A stretch of 20,000 bases of DNA, taken from an uncultured virus (IMG/VR IMGVR_UViG_3300008050_000035). Lineage: Duplodnaviria > Heunggongvirae > Uroviricota > Caudoviricetes. Position numbers and translations under genes: made by a program. Shown here piece after piece: positions 2,545 to 18,900 of the stretch. The DNA lies in IMG/VR virus record IMGVR_UViG_3300008050_000035, positions 54,974 to 74,973 of that record, one strand, 5' to 3'. Position 1 is the stretch's first letter. Each line of letters begins with the position of its first letter. The notes beneath the pieces are model-generated. The model saw only the letters and a list, made by a program, of their open reading frames with translations. It was not told the origin of the DNA and searched no databases.

Positions 2545-4823
2545 TACTTTCTCCTTCTCCGAATAGAGCGTCGTCTTTCTTTGCGTCTACTCACTACATG
2601 GGAGCTCACACTTGAATCTCCCTCGTACAAGTGCTCAGTGTCATCACCGTATCCACGATAATCCTTCGCCTTATTCTTAAGCCATTCTCCTACAGAAAAG
2701 CCTTTTTTGTCCACTCTGTCTCGACCTCGTTGCTGTACTCTACCTTTTTGCTGCTGGTTGCGTTTTGCAGCATCAGCAGCAGTCTCACCCTCTCTCATTG
2801 TCTGAAGGAGTTCGATAGCTCCTGGAAAAGTAGTTTGCTGACGTTTAATTAAACCCAGAACTTCAGAACCAGGACTATCTTTACCACGCTCAGACTTGGC
2901 AGCACGTTCATCTAAATATTCTCTACTCATAGCCTTCGGTCGGCTGTGGGCCATGTTCCTTCCACTATAAAGACCATTTTCAAGTTGAATGCCAGCCAGT
3001 GCAAGCATTAGTGCATCTAGTCTGTGATCGCCAACCCGATCGGACTCAGCCCCATACACCGGCTTGTTGGTAATATGAGACCTTCGCAAAACAACATAAT
3101 TCAGCATCTGTTTGCGTAAATGGTCCTCGGTGCTTGGCATCCAAAAGATGCCATCTTCCATAACGCGCACAGCAAACTCAACCAAAAATTCCTTTCCTGT
3201 CTTGTGAATCTTTGCGCCGTCAATGGGACTGCGCAACTCAACTTTAGAACTAAAGTTAAAAGACACAAGTCTATCTTTAATTTTAGCTGTCTCTACGTCA
3301 CGGCGAGTAACCTTGGGTTGCATAGCTACCTGAGCGCTAAGGACTTTGAGATCTTCAATGATCGTATGCCCATAACCTTCATCAGCATAGATGTAGTCGG
3401 GTTTCCATTTGTAATTTAAACGAACAACCTCTTCTTTCCATTTCATACTGCTAAATTCACTTGCCTGTACATTCACAATGTCCAAAGCTATGAACCGATG
3501 GGTCATTGGATCATACCCAACGACAACGAACTCGGTGCCAGCATTTTTGTTCCAGTCAATTCCAATACATTTAAACATCTTGCCGGGATCAAGTACACCA
3601 AGTTTCTTTCGCATGTATGCTTCGTCAATACAGCGTTTTATATCATAATCTTTCATCGCAGCATAGACATATGATGGTTTGAAAACACCATAGCTGGTAT
3701 CAACGAACAGAGCCATATACTCTTTATTAAAGTCCTCTTTGGAACCCTCTTTCTCATAAAGCTTTTTATTCTTATCCCACTGAGGAAGGACAGTTGAAGG
3801 AAGATGATCTTCTTTAAAAGAGTCATCTTCTAGACACCATTCGTAAAATTTGGCACGCTTACCAATTGGAGTGCTGGTAGCAATAAGCATAACTTCACCG
3901 AGCGCATCGGTCAGAAGGATAGGAAGGACAACTTTATTCAAAGTCTCTTCCGGAATCATGTCCATTTCATCAAGATAAATAATATTAGCGTTACGCCCAC
4001 GCATGGTACCACCACCAGAACCATCGGCTTTGGTGGCAACACCAGAGACGAAGCCGTTAATTACAGCTCCATTATCCATATCCATATGAAAGTACGGGGT
4101 CTTAACATAATAAGACCCACCTGACGCGGTCTTGATTCGTTTACTCAATTCGTAAGCTTCTTTGCGCTTAAGTAGTTTCTCCATCTCGTCAAAAATATTA
4201 AGCAGCTGAGACTGAAATGGAGTAACAACCATAATCTCTGGACCGGTCATAATCTTCTCGCCAGTCTTTTTATCGGTGCCGCGCTGTACCTCTCGATTGT
4301 ACGCCAGGTACAGTAGCTTCAATGCAATAATAAAAGTTTTACCACTACGACGACCTTCCCTGATGACTAATTTTTCACTAGTGCACCGAAGCTGTTCTTT
4401 CTGATATGAACGCAAATTCCATGTAGGGTCCGCATCGTCAAAACCGAACATCAAGGTCGCCCAAGCAACTGGGTCTATGGTACTTTTAAGCAGCAACTGG
4501 GCCCGTTCTGGGTCCATGTTGTTTTCTACAATCATTTTTCGCAGAGTGCCAGCACTGCCAGGAGGTAGGCTTTTTGCAATACCTTTGCAGGGCACTTTGA
4601 ATTCGTTGATAATGTTACCATCATCATCTCGTCTTCCTGCGTACTTTATCATTTGTCTTGCTTGGCAGTTGATGCAAGACCTGTGGACATCTGTACGAAT
4701 TCCATACTTGTTAGATAGCCAGTCTATGTCTTGGATATCTAATCGAGCGTCAGGATTTTGATATTCAACCCCATACTCATTTTTAACATAAAGTTTCTTC
4801 TTGATTTCAGTTAGATTCGGCAT
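2544..4823 (-). CDS. terL: Phage terminase large subunit (759 aa)
   Basis: Adenine-binding LRSYQ, Walker A GRRSGKT, MRG, Walker B IIYLDEMD, coupling motif TSTP, RNase H-like nuclease acidic motifs GIDWN / ADEGYG / DHRLDALMLA. Confidence 0.95.
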   Translation of the reverse strand: MPNLTEIKKKLYVKNEYGVEYQNPDARLDIQDIDWLSNKYGIRTDVHRSCINCQARQMIKYAGRRDDDGNIINEFKVPCKGIAKSLPPGSAGTLRKMIVENNMDPERAQLLLKSTIDPVAWATLMFGFDDADPTWNLRSYQKEQLRCTSEKLVIREGRRSGKTFIIALKLLYLAYNREVQRGTDKKTGEKIMTGPEIMVVTPFQSQLLNIFDEMEKLLKRKEAYELSKRIKTASGGSYYVKTPYFHMDMDNGAVINGFVSGVATKADGSGGGTMRGRNANIIYLDEMDMIPEETLNKVVLPILLTDALGEVMLIATSTPIGKRAKFYEWCLEDDSFKEDHLPSTVLPQWDKNKKLYEKEGSKEDFNKEYMALFVDTSYGVFKPSYVYAAMKDYDIKRCIDEAYMRKKLGVLDPGKMFKCIGIDWNKNAGTEFVVVGYDPMTHRFIALDIVNVQASEFSSMKWKEEVVRLNYKWKPDYIYADEGYGHTIIEDLKVLSAQVAMQPKVTRRDVETAKIKDRLVSFNFSSKVELRSPIDGAKIHKTGKEFLVEFAVRVMEDGIFWMPSTEDHLRKQMLNYVVLRRSHITNKPVYGAESDRVGDHRLDALMLALAGIQLENGLYSGRNMAHSRPKAMSREYLDERAAKSERGKDSPGSEVLGLIKRQQTTFPGAIELLQTMREGETAADAAKRNQQQKGRVQQRGRDRVDKKGFSVGEWLKNKAKDYRGYGDDTEHLYEGDSSVSSHVVSRRKERRRSIRRRRK

Positions 4824-10750: not shown

Positions 10751-10976
10751 CAAGTAGGTCCTCTGCTTCATAGGGATTGAAGTCTTGTAGTAGTGTGCTG
10801 CGGGCGCTGCATACGATCTCGCACTGTACGCCAACTACACTGAGAAGTGCTTCGCACTCGCCGTCTGTAGTGGCCATGAAGTTAATCATCTGTACGCCCA
10901 GAATAGGCTCGCCGGTACTGGCGTTGATGACCTTGGTGCCATTGGCAGTCCCATCGCTAATGATTTTAAGTTTCAT
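10731..10976 (-). CDS. Small beta-rich hypothetical protein (81 aa)
   Basis: Protein-like alternating hydrophobic pattern (MKLKIISDGTANGTKVINASTGEPILGVQ); operon packing. Confidence 0.7.
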   Translation of the reverse strand: MKLKIISDGTANGTKVINASTGEPILGVQMINFMATTDGECEALLSVVGVQCEIVCSARSTLLQDFNPYEAEDLLDENSSN

Positions 10977-11235
10977 TGAGTAATTTTAAAATTTGGGAAA
11001 GTTTGGGTGGAACGGGCTCAAGAGTCTTGAGAAATTTAAGTAATTCCTGTTGCTCGTTATCTACGTAGTATAACTTAATACAGGCTTTACCGTATCGGCA
11101 GTGACGCCCTCGGGGGCTACTGTCAACGAAAAACTTATACCTATAACTGTGGAAACTCATGAAAACATCATGGCCGTAGCGGCGGTGAAGTCCATGAAGT
11201 AGATTGGATAATTCGTACATACGGTTATGCTGCAT
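10966..11235 (-). CDS. Hypothetical protein (89 aa, MQHNRMYELS...), first gene of the leftward unit
   Basis: First ATG in the ORF is at 11235; the upstream part of the track ORF is AT-rich repeat sequence. Confidence 0.55.
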   Translation of the reverse strand: MQHNRMYELSNLLHGLHRRYGHDVFMSFHSYRYKFFVDSSPRGRHCRYGKACIKLYYVDNEQQELLKFLKTLEPVPPKLSQILKLLNET

Positions 11236-11241
11236 ACTGGT

Positions 11242-11269
11242 AGTATAAACGCCTACGTGTACAGGGCAA
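11242..11269 (-). promoter_or_regulatory. Candidate sigma70-type promoter TTGCCC-N16-TATACT, giving a leaderless mRNA
   Basis: Minus strand -35 at 11269-11264 and -10 at 11247-11242; 6 nt separate the -10 from ATG 11235, which has no SD. Confidence 0.4.
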
Positions 11270-11274
11270 CCAAA

Positions 11275-11324
11275 TGAAATGAAAATTTCAAATACAGGAA
11301 AAGAATTGAGTGAAATGAAAATTT
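11275..11324. repeat. Direct repeat TGAAATGAAAATTT x2 in an AT-rich divergence region
   Basis: Exact 14-mers at 11275-11288 and 11311-11324; ATACAGGA also occurs twice (11292, 11348). Confidence 0.7.
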
Positions 11325-11495
11325 TGGGAATGGAAGAGTAAAAACACATACAGGACTGCAGTACCTGGTTTATTTAAGGCAGTGTAGGTAGGGTCCCTTT
11401 GTGTTCGGAGCCCACCCCGGTCTAAGTATGAGACCATTTCCTTCTTTTTTACGCACGTGGGCAATGTTGCCCATGTGTACATACCGGAGGGACAC

Positions 11496-11534
11496 ATGTG
11501 TGATCCAGAGCGGGGAGATATATTCGACATGTAA
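11496..11534 (+). CDS. Candidate 12-aa minigene MCDPERGDIFDM
   Basis: GGAGG SD 5 nt before ATG; flanked by a degenerate cassette element upstream and a full element downstream. Confidence 0.3.
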   Translation: MCDPERGDIFDM

Positions 11535-11543
11535 GTCGGGTAT

Positions 11544-11590
11544 GGGAGAGCGCAAGCTCTCCCCTCCTTTTTATGGCGTGCTGAAGCCAT
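11544..11590 (+). promoter_or_regulatory. Intergenic cassette element copy 1
   Basis: GGGAGAGC-GCAA-GCTCTCCC, CTCCTTTTT, ATGGC-N8-GCCAT. Confidence 0.8.
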
Positions 11591-12260
11591 GTGTACTGTG
11601 AGTACATGTGGTGAGCGTCGGCTGAGAAGCCTTAAGTCCTGATTACTGTGTGGTGTGTAGGCAACCAGCAGTAAGCTCTCTCCCTACACAACAATGACCC
11701 GGTATGGGGATACTCACAAAGGGCACAACCGCAAGATGTAAGACATCTGCATGTGCCTGGCAATACATACCTGCTTATGCTCCTGCAAGGAAGGAGTTAG
11801 TGAGCCCGCCACTAGGATGCGGGAGGTGACAGTACCACCGATGTACGTTAGTCAGCCTGCGACTAGGATGCAGGATAGTGTAGCCCCTACTAGGACAGGG
11901 GATGTATGAGGGAAGGTGGGGACTGCCCACGGATACCTCTGGTGTGTTGCTCACCCAGGACTGGAGCTGTACGTATGCCTAGTGCATGCGTATAGTGGCC
12001 GGATGCAACTGCTTAGGCCACTATAAGGAAGTGGTAGGTAATCTGCACCTGAAAGCAGGGACGATAGCGCTCGTACAAGCGCTAGTACACAGGTACGACC
12101 TAGTAGGACATGGGCTCAGGTAGGTAGGCATGCCTACACTGAGATGGCACTGCTACTAGGTAACATGCAAGGATAACAGTACGTCCTATACGTGCTCGCT
12201 GTGGGGTGAGATGCCCACATGTACACACTGTACAACCCGTGCACTTAAGCACATAGATGT
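11573..12260 (+). ncRNA. Candidate large structured non-coding RNA or long leader with tandem H-type pseudoknots
   Basis: No credible ORF over ~690 nt; many stems with plus-strand G-U pairs; 4-5 abutting pseudoknots with covariation at 11772-11901. Boundaries inferred. Confidence 0.65.
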
Positions 12261-12273
12261 CCTGGAGGACACC

Positions 12274-12846
12274 ATGACCAGCAACACAATCATCGAGATC
12301 GTCAGTACATTCACCACATACCTGAACACAGGTATCGCATTCATGCTAGCTACCCTAGTAGCGCTTGTGTGTGCAGGCATCGCAGAGAAGATCATGCACG
12401 CACAGAAGACGGCACAGTACAAGGCCCCCTCTGAGGAAGAGGTCTGTGAGGAAGAGGTCATCGCCTGCATAGGCCTGGAGAGCATCAGCGCTGAGGAGTA
12501 CATGGACATGGAAGATGCCTCGGTGGTGGTAGTAGAGACCGCCTATCTGACCCTGGTGGATGAGCCCGTGTACTCTGATGAGGAGTACATGGCTGAGGAA
12601 GACGCTCAGGTAGAAGAGCAGGAGATCACGCTCGAGCAGAACATGGACATGGTAGTGTGGACAGTGAGTCGGAAGATCCTGTCTGCGGTCAAGTTCGTCA
12701 AGGCTCTGGTAGAAGCACCTGCTCGTATAGCCAAGCTGGAGCAGGAGATCGCCGAGCTGAAGCAGAACAACTTCGACTTTGACTTTGACTTCTATGCTGA
12801 CGTGAGTGAAGATGAGGGCGTCGAGCAGTACAGGCGCCAAGCGTAA
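12274..12846 (+). CDS. Membrane-anchored, highly acidic protein with C-terminal coiled coil (190 aa)
   Basis: Start ATG 12274 after TGTCC-TGGA-GGACA SD hairpin; TM GIAFMLATLVALVCAGIA; Glu/Asp-rich middle; RIAKLEQEIAELKQ. Confidence 0.8.
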   Translation: MTSNTIIEIVSTFTTYLNTGIAFMLATLVALVCAGIAEKIMHAQKTAQYKAPSEEEVCEEEVIACIGLESISAEEYMDMEDASVVVVETAYLTLVDEPVYSDEEYMAEEDAQVEEQEITLEQNMDMVVWTVSRKILSAVKFVKALVEAPARIAKLEQEIAELKQNNFDFDFDFYADVSEDEGVEQYRRQA

Positions 12847-12854
12847 GGGCATTT

Positions 12855-12945
12855 GAAAGGCAGCCCACTGGAGGCTACCTTTCTTTTATGGCCTCACAAG
12901 GATATGCATTTCGCATGTTCGGGCCATACCAAAGGAAGCACAATG
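12855..12945 (+). promoter_or_regulatory. Intergenic cassette element copy 2 (expanded second hairpin)
   Basis: GAAAGGCAGCC-CACTGGA-GGCTACCTTTC, TTTT, TATGGCC (12887) pairs with GGCCATA (12922), AAGGA SD, ATG 12943. Confidence 0.85.
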
Positions 12946-13626
12946 CGCACCATCACCATGACCGACGCCGTTCTCGCCCTCATCACCGACGATGCAGACA
13001 GGGAGTTGATGTCTAGCATGAAGGACAGCGAAGCCCCTGAGGACATCATCAAGGATATGCTGACTGAGGGGTCCTACAGCCGCCTGTTCGCAGGCAACAA
13101 CCATGCAGTCGCAGAGCTGCATATCACTGACAACAACAACGCTCAGGAGAGCACCATGATCGAGACCAAGACCACCAAGACCGCCACCCTGTCCTACATG
13201 GGCATAAGCTTCGAGATCACTACCAAGATGGACAAGGCATTCGCTGACAAGACAATCACGGCTGAGGACTTCCCAAACCTGTCCAAGGGCATGCTGCTAC
13301 AGATCGCTACCTGGCAGAACGAGCACGTCAACGCTCAGGACGTGGAGACCCCTGTGGCGGAGACCCTCACCCCTCGGCAGATGTTGAGCAAAGCTTACAA
13401 CGCCCAGCTCTCGGCCAAGCAGAAGACCTGGCTGCGTGCCAACAACCGCTACAAGGGCATCCACTTCGAAGACATGGGAAAGGGTCGCTTCAAGATCCGG
13501 TTCGCCAACTTCAGCACCAAGAGCAAGAAAACCCTGGAAGGCGTGTTCCAGAAGGCTGCTGATGCCAACAACTGGTACTGCAAGGTGCAGGCATCGCACG
13601 TGTACATCAACATGCACCTCGGCTAG
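12943..13626 (+). CDS. Hypothetical protein (227 aa) with a second in-frame start at 13156
   Basis: ATG after cassette element; strong C/G-ending codon bias; acidic N-terminal and basic C-terminal parts. Confidence 0.85.
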   Translation: MRTITMTDAVLALITDDADRELMSSMKDSEAPEDIIKDMLTEGSYSRLFAGNNHAVAELHITDNNNAQESTMIETKTTKTATLSYMGISFEITTKMDKAFADKTITAEDFPNLSKGMLLQIATWQNEHVNAQDVETPVAETLTPRQMLSKAYNAQLSAKQKTWLRANNRYKGIHFEDMGKGRFKIRFANFSTKSKKTLEGVFQKAADANNWYCKVQASHVYINMHLG

Positions 13627-13638
13627 TAGCTGAACATT

Positions 13639-13706
13639 GAAAGGGCACCCACAGGAGGTGCCCTTTTTCTATGGACACTCAAGTCCATGCCTTGGAGGGC
13701 ATTATG
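13639..13706 (+). promoter_or_regulatory. Intergenic cassette element copy 3
   Basis: GAAAGGGCACC-CACAGGA-GGTGCCCTTTT, TCT, ATGGAC-ACTCAA-GTCCAT, ATGCCT-TGGA-GGGCAT, ATG 13704. Confidence 0.85.
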
Positions 13707-14030
13707 ACAACCAACAACACACTGCCTTGGCGCACAGCCGGATCTCTTCGGAACAACACAGTCAAGATCGTAGACAGGCGTGCAGCCTACGACTCAAACT
13801 GCGAGCGTGCCTGCGGCGAATGCGCGGAGTGCAATCGGGCCTGGAACAAGGCTGAAGTCTTCAAGCAAGATCGTGCTGACCTGCACATCCGCATGTGGCG
13901 TGAGCGTGGTGGGCTTATTCCCAACGCGATCGTAGGCTTTGTGCCCTTTGGGCAGAAGAGCTGTGGGTGCATAAGACATTTAGAAGATTGCATGTGTAGG
14001 ATGGTGATAGAAGGTGACATTACGTTCTAA
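13704..14030 (+). CDS. Cys-rich hypothetical protein, possibly metal-binding (108 aa)
   Basis: Start after SD hairpin; CERACGECAEC and CGCIRHLEDCMC clusters. Confidence 0.8.
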   Translation: MTTNNTLPWRTAGSLRNNTVKIVDRRAAYDSNCERACGECAECNRAWNKAEVFKQDRADLHIRMWRERGGLIPNAIVGFVPFGQKSCGCIRHLEDCMCRMVIEGDITF

Positions 14031-14035
14031 GCCTT

Positions 14036-14105
14036 GAGAAGGTAGCCCGCTGGAGGCTACCTTCTCTTTTATGGCACTTACGCCATGATCAAGGAGATCA
14101 ACATG
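14036..14105 (+). promoter_or_regulatory. Intergenic cassette element copy 4
   Basis: Perfect 12-bp GAGAAGGTAGCC-CGCTGGA-GGCTACCTTCTC, TTTT, ATGGC-ACTTAC-GCCAT, TGATC-AAGGA-GATCA, ATG 14103. Confidence 0.85.
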
Positions 14106-14396
14106 ACAAAGAACATTACCCTCGCCCTAGCCCTCACTGGTTGCGGCGATGCAACCTATGGCAAATATGAAGACTCGTTTAAGGAAGTCGACGAATCCAG
14201 AGTCCAGGTCGAAGTGCTAAGCACTCAGTGTGATTTGATAGACTTAAGCTACGATAGCACGCTAATCATAAGTGCTACCCACTGGACCAGCAACGGACTT
14301 CGAGAGCCGATAGGAGGCTGGTGGGAGGGTGAGAACGGAAACGTTCTGCTTCAAGGCTGCGAAGCCAACGTGGAGATCGTTTGGCTTGAACGGTAG
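14103..14396 (+). CDS. Putative lipoprotein (97 aa)
   Basis: MTKNITLALALTG|C: basic residue, short hydrophobic region, lipobox LTGC. Confidence 0.65.
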   Translation: MTKNITLALALTGCGDATYGKYEDSFKEVDESRVQVEVLSTQCDLIDLSYDSTLIISATHWTSNGLREPIGGWWEGENGNVLLQGCEANVEIVWLER

Positions 14397-14402
14397 GCAG
14401 TT

Positions 14403-14466
14403 GAAGGGTGGTGCAAGCCACCCTTCTCTTTTATGGCAATCAAGCCATGTCCTGGAGGACATTATG
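14403..14466 (+). promoter_or_regulatory. Intergenic cassette element copy 5
   Basis: GAAGGGTGGT-GCAA-GCCACCCTTC, TCTTTT, ATGGC-AATCAA-GCCAT, ATGTCC-TGGA-GGACAT, ATG 14464. Confidence 0.9.
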
Positions 14467-14598
14467 ACCAAGACCGATATCGCTACAACCCTCGCTGTTG
14501 GGGCATTCTTCTTCCTGTTCGTCGGGATTCCCACTGATGACGGCCTGTACTTCGGCTACTTCTGGAAGCTCGCCCTCTGGCTCAGTGAGGTGATGTAG
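14464..14598 (+). CDS. Small membrane protein (44 aa)
   Basis: ATG after SD hairpin; hydrophobic LAVGAFFFLFVGI; stop overlaps the next GTG. Confidence 0.75.
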   Translation: MTKTDIATTLAVGAFFFLFVGIPTDDGLYFGYFWKLALWLSEVM

Positions 14599-14978
14599 TG
14601 AGGAACAGCAGGTCTGTCCTGTGGTTTGCCGCAGGGTGTCTGCTGTTCATGCCTGCATTCACCCCTATGATGGTCGACGTTCAGTTGACTGTCTGGATGT
14701 TCGTGGTGGACATGATCAAGCCCAACCCAGCACTGCTCTTCGGCTCCCTGTTCTACTGGCCTGTGCTCATCGCACTTACAGGCTGGTACTGGGTGTGGAG
14801 GGCAGTACGATGGGTCTTCGGCGATGAAGGACCTCTCCCCAGGTTCTTCAAGCTGTTGGGGATAATGTGGGCTCCTGTCTATGTTATCCCCGGCATCGTC
14901 ATCATCAGTCTCCTGGGTTGGCTCATATGCTTCTACAAGGCATATGAGATCCACCTGGGGGACAAGAAGGATTCGTGA
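14598..14978 (+). CDS. Multi-pass membrane protein (126 aa)
   Basis: GAGG(T) SD, GTG start; 3-4 hydrophobic segments. Confidence 0.75.
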   Translation: MRNSRSVLWFAAGCLLFMPAFTPMMVDVQLTVWMFVVDMIKPNPALLFGSLFYWPVLIALTGWYWVWRAVRWVFGDEGPLPRFFKLLGIMWAPVYVIPGIVIISLLGWLICFYKAYEIHLGDKKDS

Positions 14979-15280
14979 GTACAAGACATGTCCGCGAGTA
15001 CTGTTCGCACTGCAGGTGTGAGCAGTGGTGCACACTTAAGGGATGGGGCCTCTACTGTGATGCGAAGGATCACTTCGTTCGTAGTAAGAGGGCCGCCAAG
15101 AGGAAGGCTCCTACATCCACAAGTATGTACAAGGATGTGCGCGGACACATTAACGATACATTCAATGGGCGTGGGACCTACACCTGGGATGAGCTGATCA
15201 TCTGGTGTACTCGCACACACTTCAATGACCTCAAAGGCTTCTGCGAGGACATGAGGGAGGTAGAATGTTCTACGTCGTGA
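14975..15280 (+). CDS. Hypothetical protein with N-terminal zinc-ribbon-like motif (101 aa)
   Basis: GTGA overlap, AAGGA SD; CSHC...YCDAKDH. Confidence 0.75.
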   Translation: MSTRHVREYCSHCRCEQWCTLKGWGLYCDAKDHFVRSKRAAKRKAPTSTSMYKDVRGHINDTFNGRGTYTWDELIIWCTRTHFNDLKGFCEDMREVECSTS

Positions 15281-15399
15281 ATCAGTACGACGAAGAGACT
15301 GACCTGAAAGCTACGAGCTGGAAGGAAGCTTACAAAGAGGTTCGGGAGATGTTCCCGCACTTCTACGGAAAGCTGAACTCAATCATCTTCAAGAGATAG
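15265..15399 (+). CDS. Small hypothetical protein (44 aa, MFYVVNQYDEETDLKATSWKEAYKEVREMFPHFYGKLNSIIFKR)
   Basis: Below the ORF-track cutoff; GGGAGGT SD just upstream; ends 5 nt before cassette copy 6. Confidence 0.75.
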   Translation: MFYVVNQYDEETDLKATSWKEAYKEVREMFPHFYGKLNSIIFKR

Positions 15400-15404
15400 C
15401 ATTG

Positions 15405-15469
15405 GAAGGGCACTAGAAGGTGCCCTTCTCTTTTATGGCAATTCCTGCCATGTCCTGGAGGACATTATG
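15405..15469 (+). promoter_or_regulatory. Intergenic cassette element copy 6
   Basis: GAAGGGCACT-AGAA-GGTGCCCTTC, TCTTTT, ATGGCA-ATTCC-TGCCAT, ATGTCC-TGGA-GGACAT, ATG 15467. Confidence 0.9.
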
Positions 15470-15932: not shown

Positions 15933-18900
15933 GACAGACCAACCAACGAAGAGCGCTATAACGCGTTCGCCAAGAACAACATCATCAGCAACCACATGGA
16001 CCTCGTATGGGGCATCATGGTTGGCTTCGACCTGGCACCAAGTGTCAGGACATACTGCGCAGCGCTAGGAGAGGACTTTGAAGTAGAGGCTCTCGAGCAT
16101 GACCCCATGGGTAAGCTCATCCTTAATCACGTAAGCGATCTGTGGGAGCAGCGGAAGGCCGAGAAGCTGGAGAAGAGGTGGGCCAAGGAGGTGCGGCGTG
16201 TTGCACGTCGCGCCGCATACGCTGACGCTTCGGAGATCAAGGCGAGTAGTCGTCGTGATGGCACCGTGCGATTCTCCTTCGATACTGCCATGGCCTGCAT
16301 GGGCCTCATGGCAGAAATCCTCAACTACGAGGGTGTCTCTCAAGAAGAGCCTGTGGTTCTGAATTTACTTAATCGCCTCCCCTTCGTCAAGAACGAGAAG
16401 GGTAAAGAAACTACCAGACAGCATGATGTTCCTATTAGTGAAGCTGAGAACTTCGGCACCTGTGGTTACGAGCTATACCAGCTCAAGACCCTATGGAACT
16501 CGAAGATCACCGAACTGTGGGACATCTTCGAACGTTGCCTTCCTACCGCAATTGATCGAAGCAGCTATCATCGTCGGATGCGTGCTCCACTCATCCCCGG
16601 CGGCTTCTTGGCTGCGCAGCGCGTCCGCGTCGGCGAACTGCATGTGCGTGGCAAGTCCATGCAGGCTGATGGTAGTGGGTGGTATGATCCTCACCACGAG
16701 GACATGGCTGACCTCATGGCAGAGTACGGTCCTGTCGGACTGCAGTACACTGCCGTCAACCCCATCACCGGTCACTTCTTCAAGGGTATCATATACCCAA
16801 TGGAGAGTATGAATGACTGCGGTGAAGACACTGCGGCCATCCAATTCGACCATCTGCAGGTCAAGGGCGCCAAGAAGGCTGCCCACAAGACGCTTGCCAA
16901 ACTTGATCCTCGCGGACTGCTGGCCGGCGCATTCATGCTTGACGGTGTTCACATCGGCATCATGAAGGCCAAGACCACGATCGGTAAAGTCTCGGGCTGC
17001 TTCGAGACCTTGGAGAACATTGGCCCTAACCCTGCTCACTATGAGAAGGGAAAGGGCAGTGCCAAGTACATCCGCGATAAGCTTCGTGTGGCTAAACTCA
17101 TCGCAAGTCTGACTGCTGAGTCAGTCAATGCCATTGGTGAGCTTGGCCCACAAGGCCTGCTCGGTCGTGCCACCCGTGACGATCCTCACCTGCGTCGTTT
17201 GGCAGAGTTCATCGCTCTGGCAAACGGCAAGGGAGCGGGCATCAACCCGCTCGGCATTCCGCTGCTGGCTTCTAAGCTGCGGGAGAGCTTGAGTCGTCGC
17301 ATGTGGGGTCCTGCCAATGGTGCAGGTATCGATGGCAAGTACCCGATGGTCGTGATTGACGCAACCCTGAAGCCAGGGACCTGCGTCATCGCTGGCTACA
17401 AGACCGGCACCAAGCTCGCATGCTGGCGTTTCCCCACCGTTCTCGCCCAGTCCTTGCTGGTTCTCGAGGTCGTTGGTGGCAAGCGTCATCACCGCGTGGA
17501 TGATAAGGTTGTTCGCAACCTCATATACATGAACCCGCATGACATCACGACATGTCAGCAGGGTGACGACGACGGAGATGAAGTAGGTATCTCCGATGAC
17601 CCACGAGTCATCGAGTTGTTCAATCATAAGATCGACAACGGTGTCTACCACATCGAGCCCACGTCTGAGAAGCTCGTTCACCTAGCCAGGGAGCCAAAGG
17701 GCAAGGAATATTTACGAAAGAACCCAATGGGGCCAGTTGGTCGCATCACTATCTGGCGTGCAGCTCTGCTCGCCGTTGGCGATTATCAACTGGCACGTGC
17801 CTTCAGTGTCCTCATCCAAGAGGCCATTGACATGCAGAAGAACATCGTCCGCATGACACACCCCCTAAAGGCCTCCAACCTTAACAACTGGTACAAGAAT
17901 CGTAATGGTGAGTATCACATCCACTACAAGTGCAACGGCAGTGCAAACTGTCTCTGCACCGAGCGAGTGGATGGGAAGTGTCCCAATAAGGATAGCGGCT
18001 ACCTGACGGACAACTGGCTCCAGGAAGAGCCAGGTTTCGACATGGACGTAGTTGAGGATGTCTACAAGAACGCCCTCATTAGTGCGGGTTGCAGCAGAGT
18101 CGTAAAGACCAAGGGTGGCGGGACGAAAGTCATCGCCGGCTGGCCTCTTGGCTGGCGTAACCAGGCTCGCATCATCGAGCTCGGAGACGGCAAGAAGGGT
18201 GAAAACCCTATCCGAAAGGCAGTGGCTCTAGACAACTGGAAGTCCTGGCGCGAGAAACAGGATGGTGAGTTCAGTAACTGGGTCCACGTGGCCCACGACC
18301 TGGCCATGATTCGCTGGCGCCAATGGCACGACAGCTTCAAAGTGTCAGAGGAAGTACCTACCAAGGACGTCCTCCACAAGATTCTAACTGCCCTGGGCTC
18401 CCCGCTCAAGCCACTACCAATCACGTGGCAGCAATACGCAGAGAAGTCGCACAGGAGTAATCCTGACCCCCTCCGGGTCCGTGCTGGCATCATTGCCTAT
18501 GGCGCTGATATGAAGCGGATTCGTACCGAGGGAACCAAGGATGAGGGAAACCTCACTGGTCCAGTCGACGAATCAGCGAGAATGGCTAGGATTGACAACA
18601 TCAGGGCTCACCTGGAGCTAGCGCTCAGCAACCTTAGTCCCCAAGAGCTTCTCACCGTATGGGAGAAGGAACTGACGGACTGCTGGTACTACGGTAGGCA
18701 GGGTAAGCCTAAGTGTTACACAACAGACAAGAAGTCCATTCCAGAAGGAGTGAAGTTCTACACAGCAAACAAGCCCAACTACGCCTTCATGGCCCTGTGT
18801 TCCAGACACTCGGCAATCATGAAGGTCTTGGGCATGGAAGCTTCAGAAGCCTGCAGCTGGACCAACGAGAAGCGTTTAGTGTCGTACGTGAAGTGGTGCC

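Follow-up and report, generated by a model that had tools for sequence, protein, structure and literature searches.

Small early-type genes that are bounded by near-identical stem-loops make up the PeSL cassettes of T4-type phages, which are found in a plastic region of the genome. HK022 put and lambda nut exemplify structured RNAs that head operons: two stem-loops, 60-70 nt in all, precede genes among which several terminators lie. Phages also carry far larger non-coding RNAs, such as GOLLD and ROOL, and a report on the vibriophage ICP1 describes an abundant ~800-nt non-coding transcript from a 1-kb ORF-less gap between gp139 and gp140 (PMC7567579). GOLLD, ROOL and the ICP1 transcript are already known, but their functions are not.

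The element described here comes from a window of 20,000 nucleotides (the whole stretch of DNA that was analysed) from the genome of an uncultured large marine phage, where it forms a gene-free stretch of ~0.7 kb (window 11573-12273) at the head of rightward genes. A search for homologues, as proposed in the initial annotation, found a homologous element at the matching place in two related marine phage contigs, complete in L022 and represented by its 5' part in L039. The element is best read as a member of a small non-coding family, 0.7-0.95 kb in length, that belongs to one clade of large marine tailed phages, all uncultured. We see about an even chance that it represents a new, modular family of structured leader RNA, which may serve with its GGA loops as a platform for protein binding. 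The initial annotation had proposed a new large ncRNA of ornate design and, as an alternative, a giant leader of the gene at 12274. The first proposal holds in that the element is non-coding, falls outside the described RNA families, has homologues in related phages and is maintained by selection with compensatory changes; the very early expression that it included is a prediction, and its 'ornate' architecture is not supported, as comparative evidence extends to short local hairpins and one pseudoknot candidate only. The giant leader fits best, since no terminator ends the element in either the window or L022 and the gene downstream is weakly homologous.

Setting and parts of the element

The phage genome (192,537 bases) has one divergence point, with + strand genes from ~8.2 to 127 kb and - strand genes over the remainder, and the element is located there. 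The initial annotation placed its beginning at a signal that elsewhere starts mRNAs, with no credible gene until 12274. The position of the signal and the lack of a credible gene in 11573-12273 are borne out, and the signal, a G+C hairpin followed by T[CT]TTTT?ATG[GC]C, is present at only 5 sites in the genome, all of them on the + strand at window 11565-15426. The same start hairpin stands ahead of genes at 12887, 14071, 14433 and 15435, and at 14447 and 15450 the ribosome-binding hairpin comes straight after it. The + strand has no terminator-like site within 11573-12273, and a search of that strand for sigma-70-like promoters gave none. The conserved non-coding block at the left of the cassettes, which adjoins the right side of the leftward gene arm, is 79% identical to L022 over 72 nt.

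The layout of L022 is that of the window: terminator, start hairpin, element, ribosome-binding site and gene follow in the same order, with a terminator directly ahead of the element and none inside on that strand, the one terminator-like site within the L022 element being on the opposite strand. In both L022 and L039 the element lies between + strand genes. The product of the 12274 gene, which matched no Pfam or PHROG family, shows weak similarity (32% over 76 aa, E 0.021) to the 228-aa product of the gene that follows the element in L022. Linkage of the kind expected of a cis-regulatory leader is thus conserved, in the order of the element and the weakly similar downstream proteins, with transcription of the element itself predicted.

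The segment had been called ORF-free, and the longest ORF wholly within 11573-12260 indeed has no more than 59 aa; reassigning TGA, TAG or TAA opened no reading frame, and related elements (L022 and L039) differ through 1- and 2-nt indels. Every stem named in the initial annotation was confirmed in the sequence: GGTATG/CATACC (11702/11766) around GGGCACA/TGTGCCT and AGATGT-AAG-ACATCT, TACGTATGC/GCATGCGTA, the 10-bp TATAGTGGCC/GGCCACTATA, CCTAGTAG/CTACTAGG (12099/12153) and TGTGGG/CCCACA (12200/12214). Both pseudoknot candidates are there as well, one pairing TCGTAC at 12071 with GTACGA at 12093 and the other reading AGGA-TAAC-AGTACG-TCCT-ATA-CGTGCT at 12170-12196. These and the other parts are listed in Table 1. 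Some have counterparts in the relatives and some do not. For example, L022 has GGTAC/GTACC at the position of the GGTATG/CATACC stem, and its minimum-energy fold contains no counterpart of the 20-nt long-range closing stem.

Table 1. Coordinates of the element, its parts and its immediate neighbours in the window
Feature	Position	Strand	Remarks
Conserved non-coding block	11383..11450	+	Terminator-like hairpin 11419-11435 and T run at its end
Short 'cassette 0'	11451..11543	+	Hairpin CACGTGGGCAA/TTGCCCATGTG, RBS-like GGAGGGACAC; inverted repeat I5
Candidate 12-codon ORF in cassette 0	11497-11535	+	Read from sequence
Intrinsic-terminator-like hairpin GGGAGAGC-GCAA-GCTCTCCC, then CTCCTTTTT	11544..11572	+	8 pairs, 6 G-C
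Cassette start hairpin ATGGC-GTGCTGAA-GCCAT	11573..11590	+	One of the 5 signal sites of the genome
Left arm of 20-nt long-range inverted repeat I1	11592..11611	+	90% complementary; closes minimum-energy fold
9-mer AAGCTCTCT in hairpin loop	11673..11681	+	Common to window, L022 and L039
Stem GGTATG/CATACC around GGGCACA...TGTGCCT hairpin	11702..11771	+	3' strand is the beginning of A1
Block A1: TACCTGCTTATG and hairpin CTCCT-GCAAGGA-AGGAG	11768..11796	+	Sequence comparison
Three repeat units (D1), hairpins with loop ACTAGGA	11796..11902	+	100/86/69% repeat identity
TAGCCCCT hairpin, then A.G.ATG.GGGAA, then further hairpin	11881..11939	+	Part order kept in L022 and L039
Hairpins TGTACGTATGC/GCATGCGTATA and TATAGTGGCC/GGCCACTATA (I2), or alternative CCACT-ATAAGGA-AGTGG	11961..12047	+	
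Hairpin TAGCGC-TCGTACAA-GCGCTA (I16)	12065..12098	+	Loop complementary to GTACGA 12093; pseudoknot candidate, window only
Long hairpin CCTAGTAG...CTACTAGG (I17) around CTCAG/CTGAG and GTAGG/CCTAC	12099..12160	+	
Block A2: AAGGATAAC, hairpin (A)GTACG-TCCTATA-CGTGC(T), hairpin TGTGGG-GTGAGATG-CCCACA	12169..12219	+	
Right arm of 20-nt long-range inverted repeat I1	12215..12234	+	Inverted-repeat search
Ribosome-binding hairpin TGTCC-TGGA-GGACA	12256..12273	+	Identical copies at 14447 and 15450
First gene behind the element, 190 aa	12274..12846	+	Hydrophobic N-terminus, acidic middle

Conserved blocks and compensatory change

Five matched flanking proteins are 33-61% identical between the phages of the window and its relatives. 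Across this distance block A1 (29 nt) is identical at 29/29 positions in L022 and in a further contig, L016, and the counterpart of its hairpin in L039 reads CTACT-ACAAGGA-AGTAG; block A2 (47 nt) is 87% identical (41/47) between the window and L022. A1, the CCCCU hairpin and A2 are nearly constant while the sequence between them turns over, and outside the blocks the elements of the window (701 nt) and L022 (944 nt) are unalignable. Between L039 and L022 the element has 84.4% identity over 640 nt, compared with 75.3-80.3% in three coding stretches. Three lineages are known, with A2 readable in only two of them, and the assemblies of L016 and L039 end inside the element. Contigs that join both conserved blocks were present in 3/3 marine runs examined, so the element represents a family and not a single occurrence. 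A search of sequencing runs gave 3 positive ones, all presumably DNA and none RNA, a result without bearing on expression.

Compensatory base pairs, which would also be expected of a cis-regulatory leader, were found in A2, in A1 and between L022 and L039. In A2, all 32/32 cells of 16 pairs are paired, with 3 compensatory pairs that hold 6/7 of the substitutions, while slid controls are 22-60% paired; in A1 the figures are 18/18 cells for 6 pairs, with 1 compensatory pair. The pseudoknot candidate of A2 (12170-12196), with its AGGA/TCCT pairing potential, belongs to the block with the strongest conservation, and covariation is seen at its closing pair. The stems of the ACTAGGA repeats (CCCGC/GCGGG, CCTGC/GCAGG and CCCCT/AGGGG) likewise differ from one another by paired changes. 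Comparison of L022 with L039 gave 7 and 10 pairing-preserving double changes, where the 8 slid controls had 0-3 apiece, and 13 pairs changed on both sides against 4.7-4.9 expected. These tests use 2-3 distinct sequences, and the shuffle controls are therefore weak (68/500 and 147/500). Substitution rates are equal in predicted paired (63/388) and unpaired (38/239) positions, and many predicted pairs are broken in a relative (16/33 one-sided changes). The comparison shows that predicted hairpins are preserved through compensatory change; the element, as far as the aligned sequences reveal it, is a string of hairpins that evolution has maintained and in which a few blocks hardly vary.

The family seems confined to the clade of the window, L022 and L039, since A1 and A2 are lacking at seven loci (L041-L047) that have a neighbour protein (255 aa) at 32-48% identity; these loci contain no window-type cassette signal or palindrome-rich stretch either. 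Neither the 50,697 phage records nor the species genomes of bacteria and archaea (~185,000) contained a match to the element, and in the latter the A1 and A2 patterns gave 0 and 0 occurrences. In viral contigs the A2 pattern was found in the window's own genome only, and the downstream L022 protein had no match. The phage has no close cultured relatives: the neighbour protein matched 2 records at 27.6% identity and the terminase 8 records at 24-28%, the latter being no more than 28% identical to any phage among the 50,697 records. A covariance model of A2, run over 271,538 bases of examined loci, returned its 2 source sequences and one 18-bit match in a tRNA array region (L031:11059-11121), which shares a loose hairpin shape only and was set aside. 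Other candidates were dropped, including chance matches of the ribosome-binding 18-mer within unrelated sequence (L003, L006 and L007, with relatives of the 983-aa protein in 0/3 and of the 190-aa protein in 0/3), the same 18-mer in coding DNA of an unrelated phage (L020), and a degenerate A1 pattern inside coding sequence (L023-L026).

Strand, composition and other readings

The dense base pairing that the initial annotation had singled out was compared with shuffled sequence. Folding z-scores are -3.42 (+) and -3.07 (-) with 20 shuffles, -4.78 (+) and -2.18 (-) for 11592-12259 with 60 shuffles, and -3.46 and -2.55 when pairs are limited to 50 nt. Both strands fold beyond shuffles, but 2/10 coding control segments, both from the 1090-aa gene, also reach z < -4 on the + strand, so the z-score of the element is by itself unexceptional. 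Global folding of L022 gives -2.64 (+) against -1.67 (-), and local folding of L039 is stronger on the - strand (-5.10 against -3.85). The claim that most mismatches can be taken as G-U on the + strand found no statistical support, as helix-adjacent G-U (41) and A-C (30) do not differ significantly (p = 0.24), nor do G-U (18) and A-C (15) in the other sequence when helices are restricted to Watson-Crick pairs (p = 0.73). An earlier substitution count that apparently favoured the + strand was rejected as biased, because G-U pairs on that strand had been permitted when its helices were predicted. Some features do lean towards the + strand: the global z-scores of the window and L022, a U-G pair of the A2 stem that both phages retain, the G-U closing pair of A1 in the window, and the GGA excess described below.

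Palindromic tetramers (GTAC/CATG/CTAG/ACGT/TGCA) reach their genome-wide maximum in the element, at 37 per 600 nt against 11.7 ± 4.1, and alternating purine-pyrimidine runs of at least 8 nt reach a genome peak, at 11 per 700 nt against 2.0 ± 1.5 (14.8 per kb against 2.85 in L022). With these peaks and no G-U excess, the element could instead act as DNA: as a replication origin, as a supercoil-responsive region prone to cruciforms or Z-DNA, or as an array of sites for a phage DNA-binding protein where the two big transcription arms diverge. We hold this to be possible, though on the unlikely side. It would suit the position at the single divergence of the arms, the strand symmetry of both composition maxima, the folding of both strands beyond shuffles, the strand-symmetric tests in which G-U is no commoner than A-C, the ACTAG(G/C) repeats (4-7 copies per element) and the A+T-richer stretch beside the element (11000-11400, GC 0.41). 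However, the element itself is 53% G+C without an A+T-rich unwinding stretch, cumulative GC skew declines monotonically without indicating an origin, and the only DnaA-box-like match, found by eye in A2, covers 6/9 positions. The L022 element is set apart from the divergence point by two + strand genes. Loops are constant while stems covary, as would be predicted if hairpins were recognised and not duplex sites, and GGA is enriched while its complement is not.

The GGA excess is seen on one strand against dinucleotide shuffles in both the window (21 vs 12.0 ± 2.6) and L022 (18 vs 9.9 ± 2.5), with TCC not enriched; the L039 part has 11 vs 7.8 ± 2.1, which is not significant. GGA is unpaired more often than the average triplet (0.56 vs 0.39), and there are 9 GGA-loop hairpins in 718 nt, against 2.1-2.8 per kb genome-wide, and 8 in L022, although 8-9 are also reached in other 700-nt windows of the genome. 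GGA density, at 1 per 33-52 nt, is about half that of CsrB. Such an RNA might act beyond its own gene. It would then belong to a new family of large modular phage RNA, produced as the rightward programme begins and serving as a multivalent decoy for a factor that binds GGA or Shine-Dalgarno sequences (CsrA-type or 30S), with A1 and A2 as a high-affinity core and fast-evolving repeats that tune capacity; we consider this doubtful. A CsrA/RsmA-type regulator as the partner is a similarly doubtful candidate. Among the phage's own proteins, the match to CsrA (PF02599) reaches 14.6 bits only, below the cut-off of 27, and a terminator before the next gene, as a stand-alone sponge RNA would have, is found in neither the window nor L022.

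That the element is functionless is a poor prospect. Cassette shuffling could have left it behind as debris, worn terminator and start hairpins that accumulated at a recombination hot spot, or it could be an insertion with inverted ends that has decayed, given that it sits in a cassette block bounded by near-identical terminator and start signals, contains the upstream terminator arm as a half copy (AAGCTCTCTCC vs AAGCTCTCCCC; D11, I12), has 20-nt inverted ends (I1), varies greatly in length and content among phages (701 vs 944 nt), and often breaks assemblies (L016 and L039). However, it is better conserved than the adjoining genes, it keeps A1 and A2 across phages with 33-61% protein identity, and it shows compensatory changes. 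The 192-kb genome contains it only once, and the inverted ends are not seen in L022; a MITE-like insertion was rejected on these two grounds.

Very unlikely, in our view, is a - strand leader or antisense RNA of the leftward structural and packaging arm. The - strand folds beyond shuffles, the + strand terminators would leave leftward transcription unstopped, and the first leftward gene probably starts downstream of 11349, as conservation is limited to residues 32-107. A sigma-70-like site does occur on the - strand at 11269-11242, but it lies to the left of the element and would not include it. Moreover, two + strand genes separate the element from the leftward arm in L022 and L039, the L022 element contains its terminator-like site in the antisense direction, and the GGA excess is on the + strand. 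Least credible of all is a coding role, through small peptides or an ORF with recoded TAG: the 444 nt upstream of the 12274 gene contain 4 TAG and 0 TAA/TGA in its frame and the phage encodes a suppressor-type tRNA (anticodon CTA), but the matching frame of L022 has TAA or TGA at 6, 102, 144 and 174 nt upstream of the start, for which this read-through frame was dropped, TAG is the stop of 36/222 called ORFs in the phage genome, indels of 1 and 2 nt separate the L022 and L039 elements, and the Cys/His/Trp-rich read-through translation is without a match in anything searched.

Proposed role and comparison with known systems

The favoured reading, a structured leader RNA, can be set out as a sequence of predicted steps. 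Rightward transcription would begin at the cassette start signal and make the element the leader of the 12274 gene, and the predicted transcript would fold co-transcriptionally into ~20-30 short hairpins. A1 may form a hairpin presenting CAAGGA, and A2 a candidate pseudoknot together with a hairpin with the loop GUGAGAUG. These modules and the repeated (A/U)AGGA loops are putative binding sites for a protein or the ribosome, so that the leader might be a multivalent platform or decoy that sets the translation or stability of the cassette genes, whose Shine-Dalgarno sequence would itself be displayed in a GGA-containing hairpin loop (AUGUCC-UGGA-GGACAU). If the element acts as RNA, it constitutes a new class of phage leader or decoy; should the decoy reading be true, it would be a second large RNA alongside GOLLD in one phage. 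If its role is at the DNA level, the element marks the control region that separates the two arms in these large marine phages, a deeply novel group. In either case, a GOLLD-carrying phage has a second conserved non-coding element of like size, which heads a terminator-punctuated cassette block, and the short invariant modules A1 and A2 are ready experimental targets.

The element matches no Rfam 15 family, including those against which a check had been advised (GOLLD, ROOL, HEARO, OLE, tmRNA, RNase P, group I/II introns and CsrB) as well as Rsm and CRISPR-DR. The GOLLD model (RF02032) gave 0 matches in the window at the gathering threshold (150 bits) and none at E <=10 in 11300-12320; as a positive control, it scored 156.2 bits elsewhere in the same phage (L029:7726-8150; G004 27726-28150). 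The three Rfam matches obtained at E <=10 (E 4-7.8, 10.6-12.2 bits) are to models of eukaryotic lncRNAs or thermometers, which are unrelated, and they fall at 11300-11586, beyond the body of the element. Neither tRNA nor tmRNA was detected by ARAGORN.

As the initial annotation had noted, the element falls in the size class of large phage RNAs. It resembles GOLLD and ROOL (RF02032, RF03087) in being 0.5-0.9 kb long, phage-borne, non-coding and without known function. Unlike them, it is not beside tRNA genes, lacks a terminator of its own and continues into a gene, and its comparative support is for local hairpins only and not for multi-helix junctions. With the CsrB/CsrC/RsmX-Z sponges it shares repeated short hairpins with A(N)GGA loops, in units that multiply by local duplication, as well as GGA enrichment on one strand, mostly unpaired. 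It differs from these sponges in having no Rfam match and in not being a stand-alone small RNA with its own terminator, and they in turn are without long invariant blocks such as A1 and A2. The PeSL concept covers the borders of cassettes and not a 0.7-kb non-coding cassette content, and the element departs from HK022 put and lambda nut in having two terminators upstream of it. The ICP1 transcript has been shown whereas that of the element is predicted, and the two have no sequence similarity; alike are the ORF-less gap of ~1 kb, the setting in a lytic phage of a marine bacterium, and the long non-coding product (PMC7567579).

Genomic position and boundaries of the element

The gene-free, hairpin-dense stretch at window 11573-12273 (the element) is a real, conserved and previously undescribed non-coding element, which holds a fixed place and carries selected hairpins and near-invariant modules. 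The virus record is 75 kb long and the window makes up its final 20 kb; the same DNA is found at 100% identity in the IMG/VR contig G004 (192,537 bases; G004 position = window position - 3970). The two ends of G004 share a 535-nt overlap (5 mismatches) within the terminase gene, so this contig is a circular assembly. By simple gene calling, genes run rightward over ~8.2-127 kb and leftward over the remainder, and the element sits at the sole divergence point of these two arms: the last leftward genes finish at or before 11349, and the first rightward gene (190 aa) begins at 12274. The phage is tailed, with baseplate, capsid and terminase genes (terminase identity to the nearest relatives in a 50,697-record phage collection is 24-28%), and carries replication and nucleotide genes (split DnaE, DnaG-type primase, RecA, SSB, ThyX and ribonucleotide reductase) as well as EF-Tu, a Ro60-like protein and two ClpP. 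Pfam recognised no RNA polymerase in the phage, and a search around the element for sigma-70-like promoters gave none on the + strand.

Each cassette, a gene unit behind a terminator/start-hairpin signal, is introduced by a terminator-like site and then a small hairpin, ATGGC...GCCAT. The pattern of a G+C-rich hairpin followed by T[CT]TTTT?ATG[GC]C occurs 5 times in 192 kb, always at window 11565-15426. At 14433 and 15435 the start hairpin directly precedes ATGTCC-TGGA-GGACAT and the start codon; at 11573 it lies ~670 nt from the same ribosome-binding hairpin, with no + strand terminator-like site between them. The initial annotation had placed the element behind a start signal, with neither a credible gene nor a terminator before the 12274 gene, and this account is correct: no ORF >59 aa lies wholly inside 11573-12260. 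Stop-codon reassignment opens no frame in the element, and coding is ruled out by the 1- and 2-nt indels that separate its homologues in two related marine phage contigs, L022 and L039. Immediately ahead of the start codon, cassette genes carry a perfect hairpin that presents the Shine-Dalgarno sequence in its GGA-containing loop; the stem of this hairpin covaries (ATGTCC/GGACAT in the window, ATGTAC/GTACAT in L022).

Several other features were seen nearby and elsewhere in the phage. The leftward arm is bordered directly on its right by a non-coding block that shares 79% identity with L022 over 72 nt and finishes in a hairpin and T run; this block may represent a small RNA or belong to the leftward promoter region. 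Two terminator-like sites enclose an RBS-like GGAGGGACAC and, after it, a 12-codon candidate ORF; the ORF could represent a micro-cassette or encode a leader peptide. The adjoining leftward ORF is conserved in L022 only at residues 32-107 and contains a sigma-70-like site; its true start is probably downstream of the annotated one, which would extend the intergenic region to >0.9 kb. The genes for EF-Tu, the Ro60-like vWA protein, a CCA-adding/poly(A) polymerase head domain and an RNA ligase give the phage an unusually rich toolkit for RNA and translation. TAG terminates 36/222 called ORFs despite a suppressor-type tRNA. An HNH-repeat ORF is also present in the ribonucleotide reductase region.

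Coordinates of features in the window, in regions L029-L033 of G004 and in L022
Feature	Location	Strand	Details
A1, near-invariant block	window 11768-11796		29/29 identical to L022
A2, near-invariant block	window 12169-12215		87% identical to L022
Shine-Dalgarno-loop hairpins	window 12257-12271, 14447-14462, 15450-15465; L022 (oriented) 2370-2387, 4418-4434
Non-coding block	window 11383-11450
Candidate ORF	window 11497-11535		12 codons
Leftward ORF	window 10966-11349	-
Sigma-70-like site	window 11269-11242	-	within leftward ORF
EF-Tu gene	L029:11366-12568
Ro60-like vWA protein gene	L030:15441-17024
CCA-adding/poly(A) polymerase head domain gene	L030:11392-12096
RNA ligase gene	L030:3249-4610
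GOLLD RNA	L029:7726-8150 (G004 27726-28150), outside window	+	156.2 bits, gathering 150, E 1.6e-41
tRNA array	L029-L031, G004 ~29.8-75.4 kb		24 genes by ARAGORN, 28 Rfam rows
Suppressor-type tRNA	L031:7188-7260		anticodon CTA
Group I intron with LAGLIDADG ORF	L033:4257-4493	+	62.9 bits; splits DnaE (Pol III alpha) gene

Relatives, conservation and covariation

Relatives were sought in contigs of three marine runs, by a scan with A1 and by a protein scan with a 255-aa neighbour gene. Short contigs of the marine runs match the window solely at 11768-11796 and 12168-12216, with 303 or 330 other letters between the two blocks, compared with 372-374 in the window. Homologues were found: the A1 scan gave L016, an IMG/VR contig ending inside the element, and L022, a metagenome contig that spans it and is identical to L016 over their common part, and the protein scan added L039, which also ends inside the element. 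Assemblies of marine runs X1-X3 are interrupted at the two conserved blocks (window 11768-12216), and three IMG/VR contigs terminate within the element; several block-sharing variants appear to co-occur and split the assembly graph. Seven remoter loci (neighbour protein 32-48% identical) have neither the cassette signal nor A1/A2, and neither block occurs in species-representative bacterial and archaeal genomes.

In L022 the leftward genes are followed by a pair of small rightward genes, both with the terminator/start signal; after these come a terminator and a start hairpin, then 944 gene-free nt and a 228-aa gene that shows weak similarity to the 190-aa gene of the window (32% over 76 aa, E 0.021). 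Five comparable flanking proteins are 33-61% identical between window and L022, and the DNA is otherwise unalignable outside the conserved blocks. Also shared, in the same order, are the 9-mer AAGCTCTCT and a third, shorter block in which A.G.ATG.GGGAA follows the TAGCCCCT hairpin. L022 and L039 share 84.4% identity over 640 nt of the element, against 75.3, 79.0 and 80.3% for three adjoining coding stretches.

In A2, 6/7 substitutions between window and L022 make up three compensatory pairs, and the 16 proposed pairs are standard in 32/32 cells, compared with 22-60% when the partner is slid; the four pairs of its candidate pseudoknot stem, AGGA/TCCT, are invariant. Two lineages have CTCCT/AGGAG as the A1 hairpin stem where L039 has CTACT/AGTAG, around a retained loop (G/A)CAAGGA, and three repeat units (11796-11902) hold the loop ACTAGGA constant on stems that differ by paired changes. 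With one sequence's fold as reference, pair-keeping double changes between L022 and L039 number 7 and 10, versus a range of 0-3 across 8 slid controls, and 13 pairs changed on both sides (4.7-4.9 expected). Other results speak against a tight structure: substitution rates are the same at paired and unpaired positions, and about half of one-sided changes break the predicted pair; the pair counter's shuffle controls are weak with two or three sequences (A2 68/500, A1 147/500).

Folding and strand

All stems listed in the initial annotation are present, and restricting the fold to local pairs yields 22 hairpins over 718 nt. Structure beyond shuffled sequence is seen on both strands but is not exclusive to the element. 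Folding z-scores were -3.42 (+) and -3.07 (-) by the tool fold with 20 shuffles and, with 60 shuffles, -4.78 and -2.18 by a global fold of 11592-12259 and -3.46 and -2.55 by a local fold (pairs <=50 nt). The scores are suggestive but not unique, since 2/10 coding controls reach z < -4 on their own + strand, both in a 1090-aa gene. The DNA of that gene (window 16500-18200) folds far better than its shuffles on both strands (-4.2 to -4.6 on +, -3.1 to -3.6 on -), and no Pfam or PHROG family was recognised in its protein.

The strand evidence is mixed, so a + strand RNA is favoured, not shown. For the + strand are the flanking signals, the + strand genes on either side of the element in L022 and L039, the internal terminator-like site that the L022 element has on its other strand, the global z-scores, a U-G pair kept in the A2 stem, a G-U closing pair of A1 in the window, and GGA counts above dinucleotide shuffles (window 21 vs 12.0 +/- 2.6, L022 18 vs 9.9 +/- 2.5), with TCC not enriched. 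Neutral or contrary are the Watson-Crick-only helices, which become 18 G-U vs 15 A-C in the relative (p = 0.73), and helix-adjacent juxtapositions (41 G-U vs 30 A-C, p = 0.24); the local z of L039 is stronger on the - strand.

Possible roles and comparison with known RNAs

The strongest competing reading is a DNA-level role at the arm divergence, i.e., an origin, a supercoil-absorbing cruciform/Z-DNA region or an array of protein sites. Palindromic tetramers (GTAC, CATG, CTAG, ACGT, TGCA; 37 per 600 nt vs 11.7 +/- 4.1) and alternating purine-pyrimidine runs >=8 nt (11 per 700 nt vs 2.0 +/- 1.5) are enriched as nowhere else in the genome, and both enrichments are strand-symmetric. Such a role is the less likely reading but a serious one. 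More probably the element works as RNA, as the leader of the first rightward gene; a structured leader RNA belonging to a new family is the most likely interpretation, at about even odds.

Stems of 5-6 bp repeatedly carry loops of the form (A/U/C)AAGGA or ACTAGGA. Such GGA-loop hairpins number 9 in 718 nt versus 2.1-2.8 per kb genome-wide (a few other windows hold 8-9), and GGA triplets are unpaired more than average (0.56 vs 0.39). Because element loops and cassette Shine-Dalgarno loops both contain GGA, a single factor may read them, and the leader would then serve that factor as a multivalent platform or decoy. One candidate reader is a CsrA-type protein; against it, the GGA density is about half that of CsrB, the GGA excess in the L039 part is not significant, and the phage has no clear CsrA.

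No similar DNA was found in the 50,697 phage records, and ARAGORN found nothing in the window. The initial annotation's view of the element as a candidate new RNA also holds against Rfam 15, which gave nothing in the window at gathering thresholds and, at E <=10, no more than three matches of 10-12 bits, all at the left margin. This negative is meaningful because the same library detects, elsewhere in this phage, the group I intron in the DnaE gene and a GOLLD RNA, which lies within an ORF-free stretch beside the tRNA genes.
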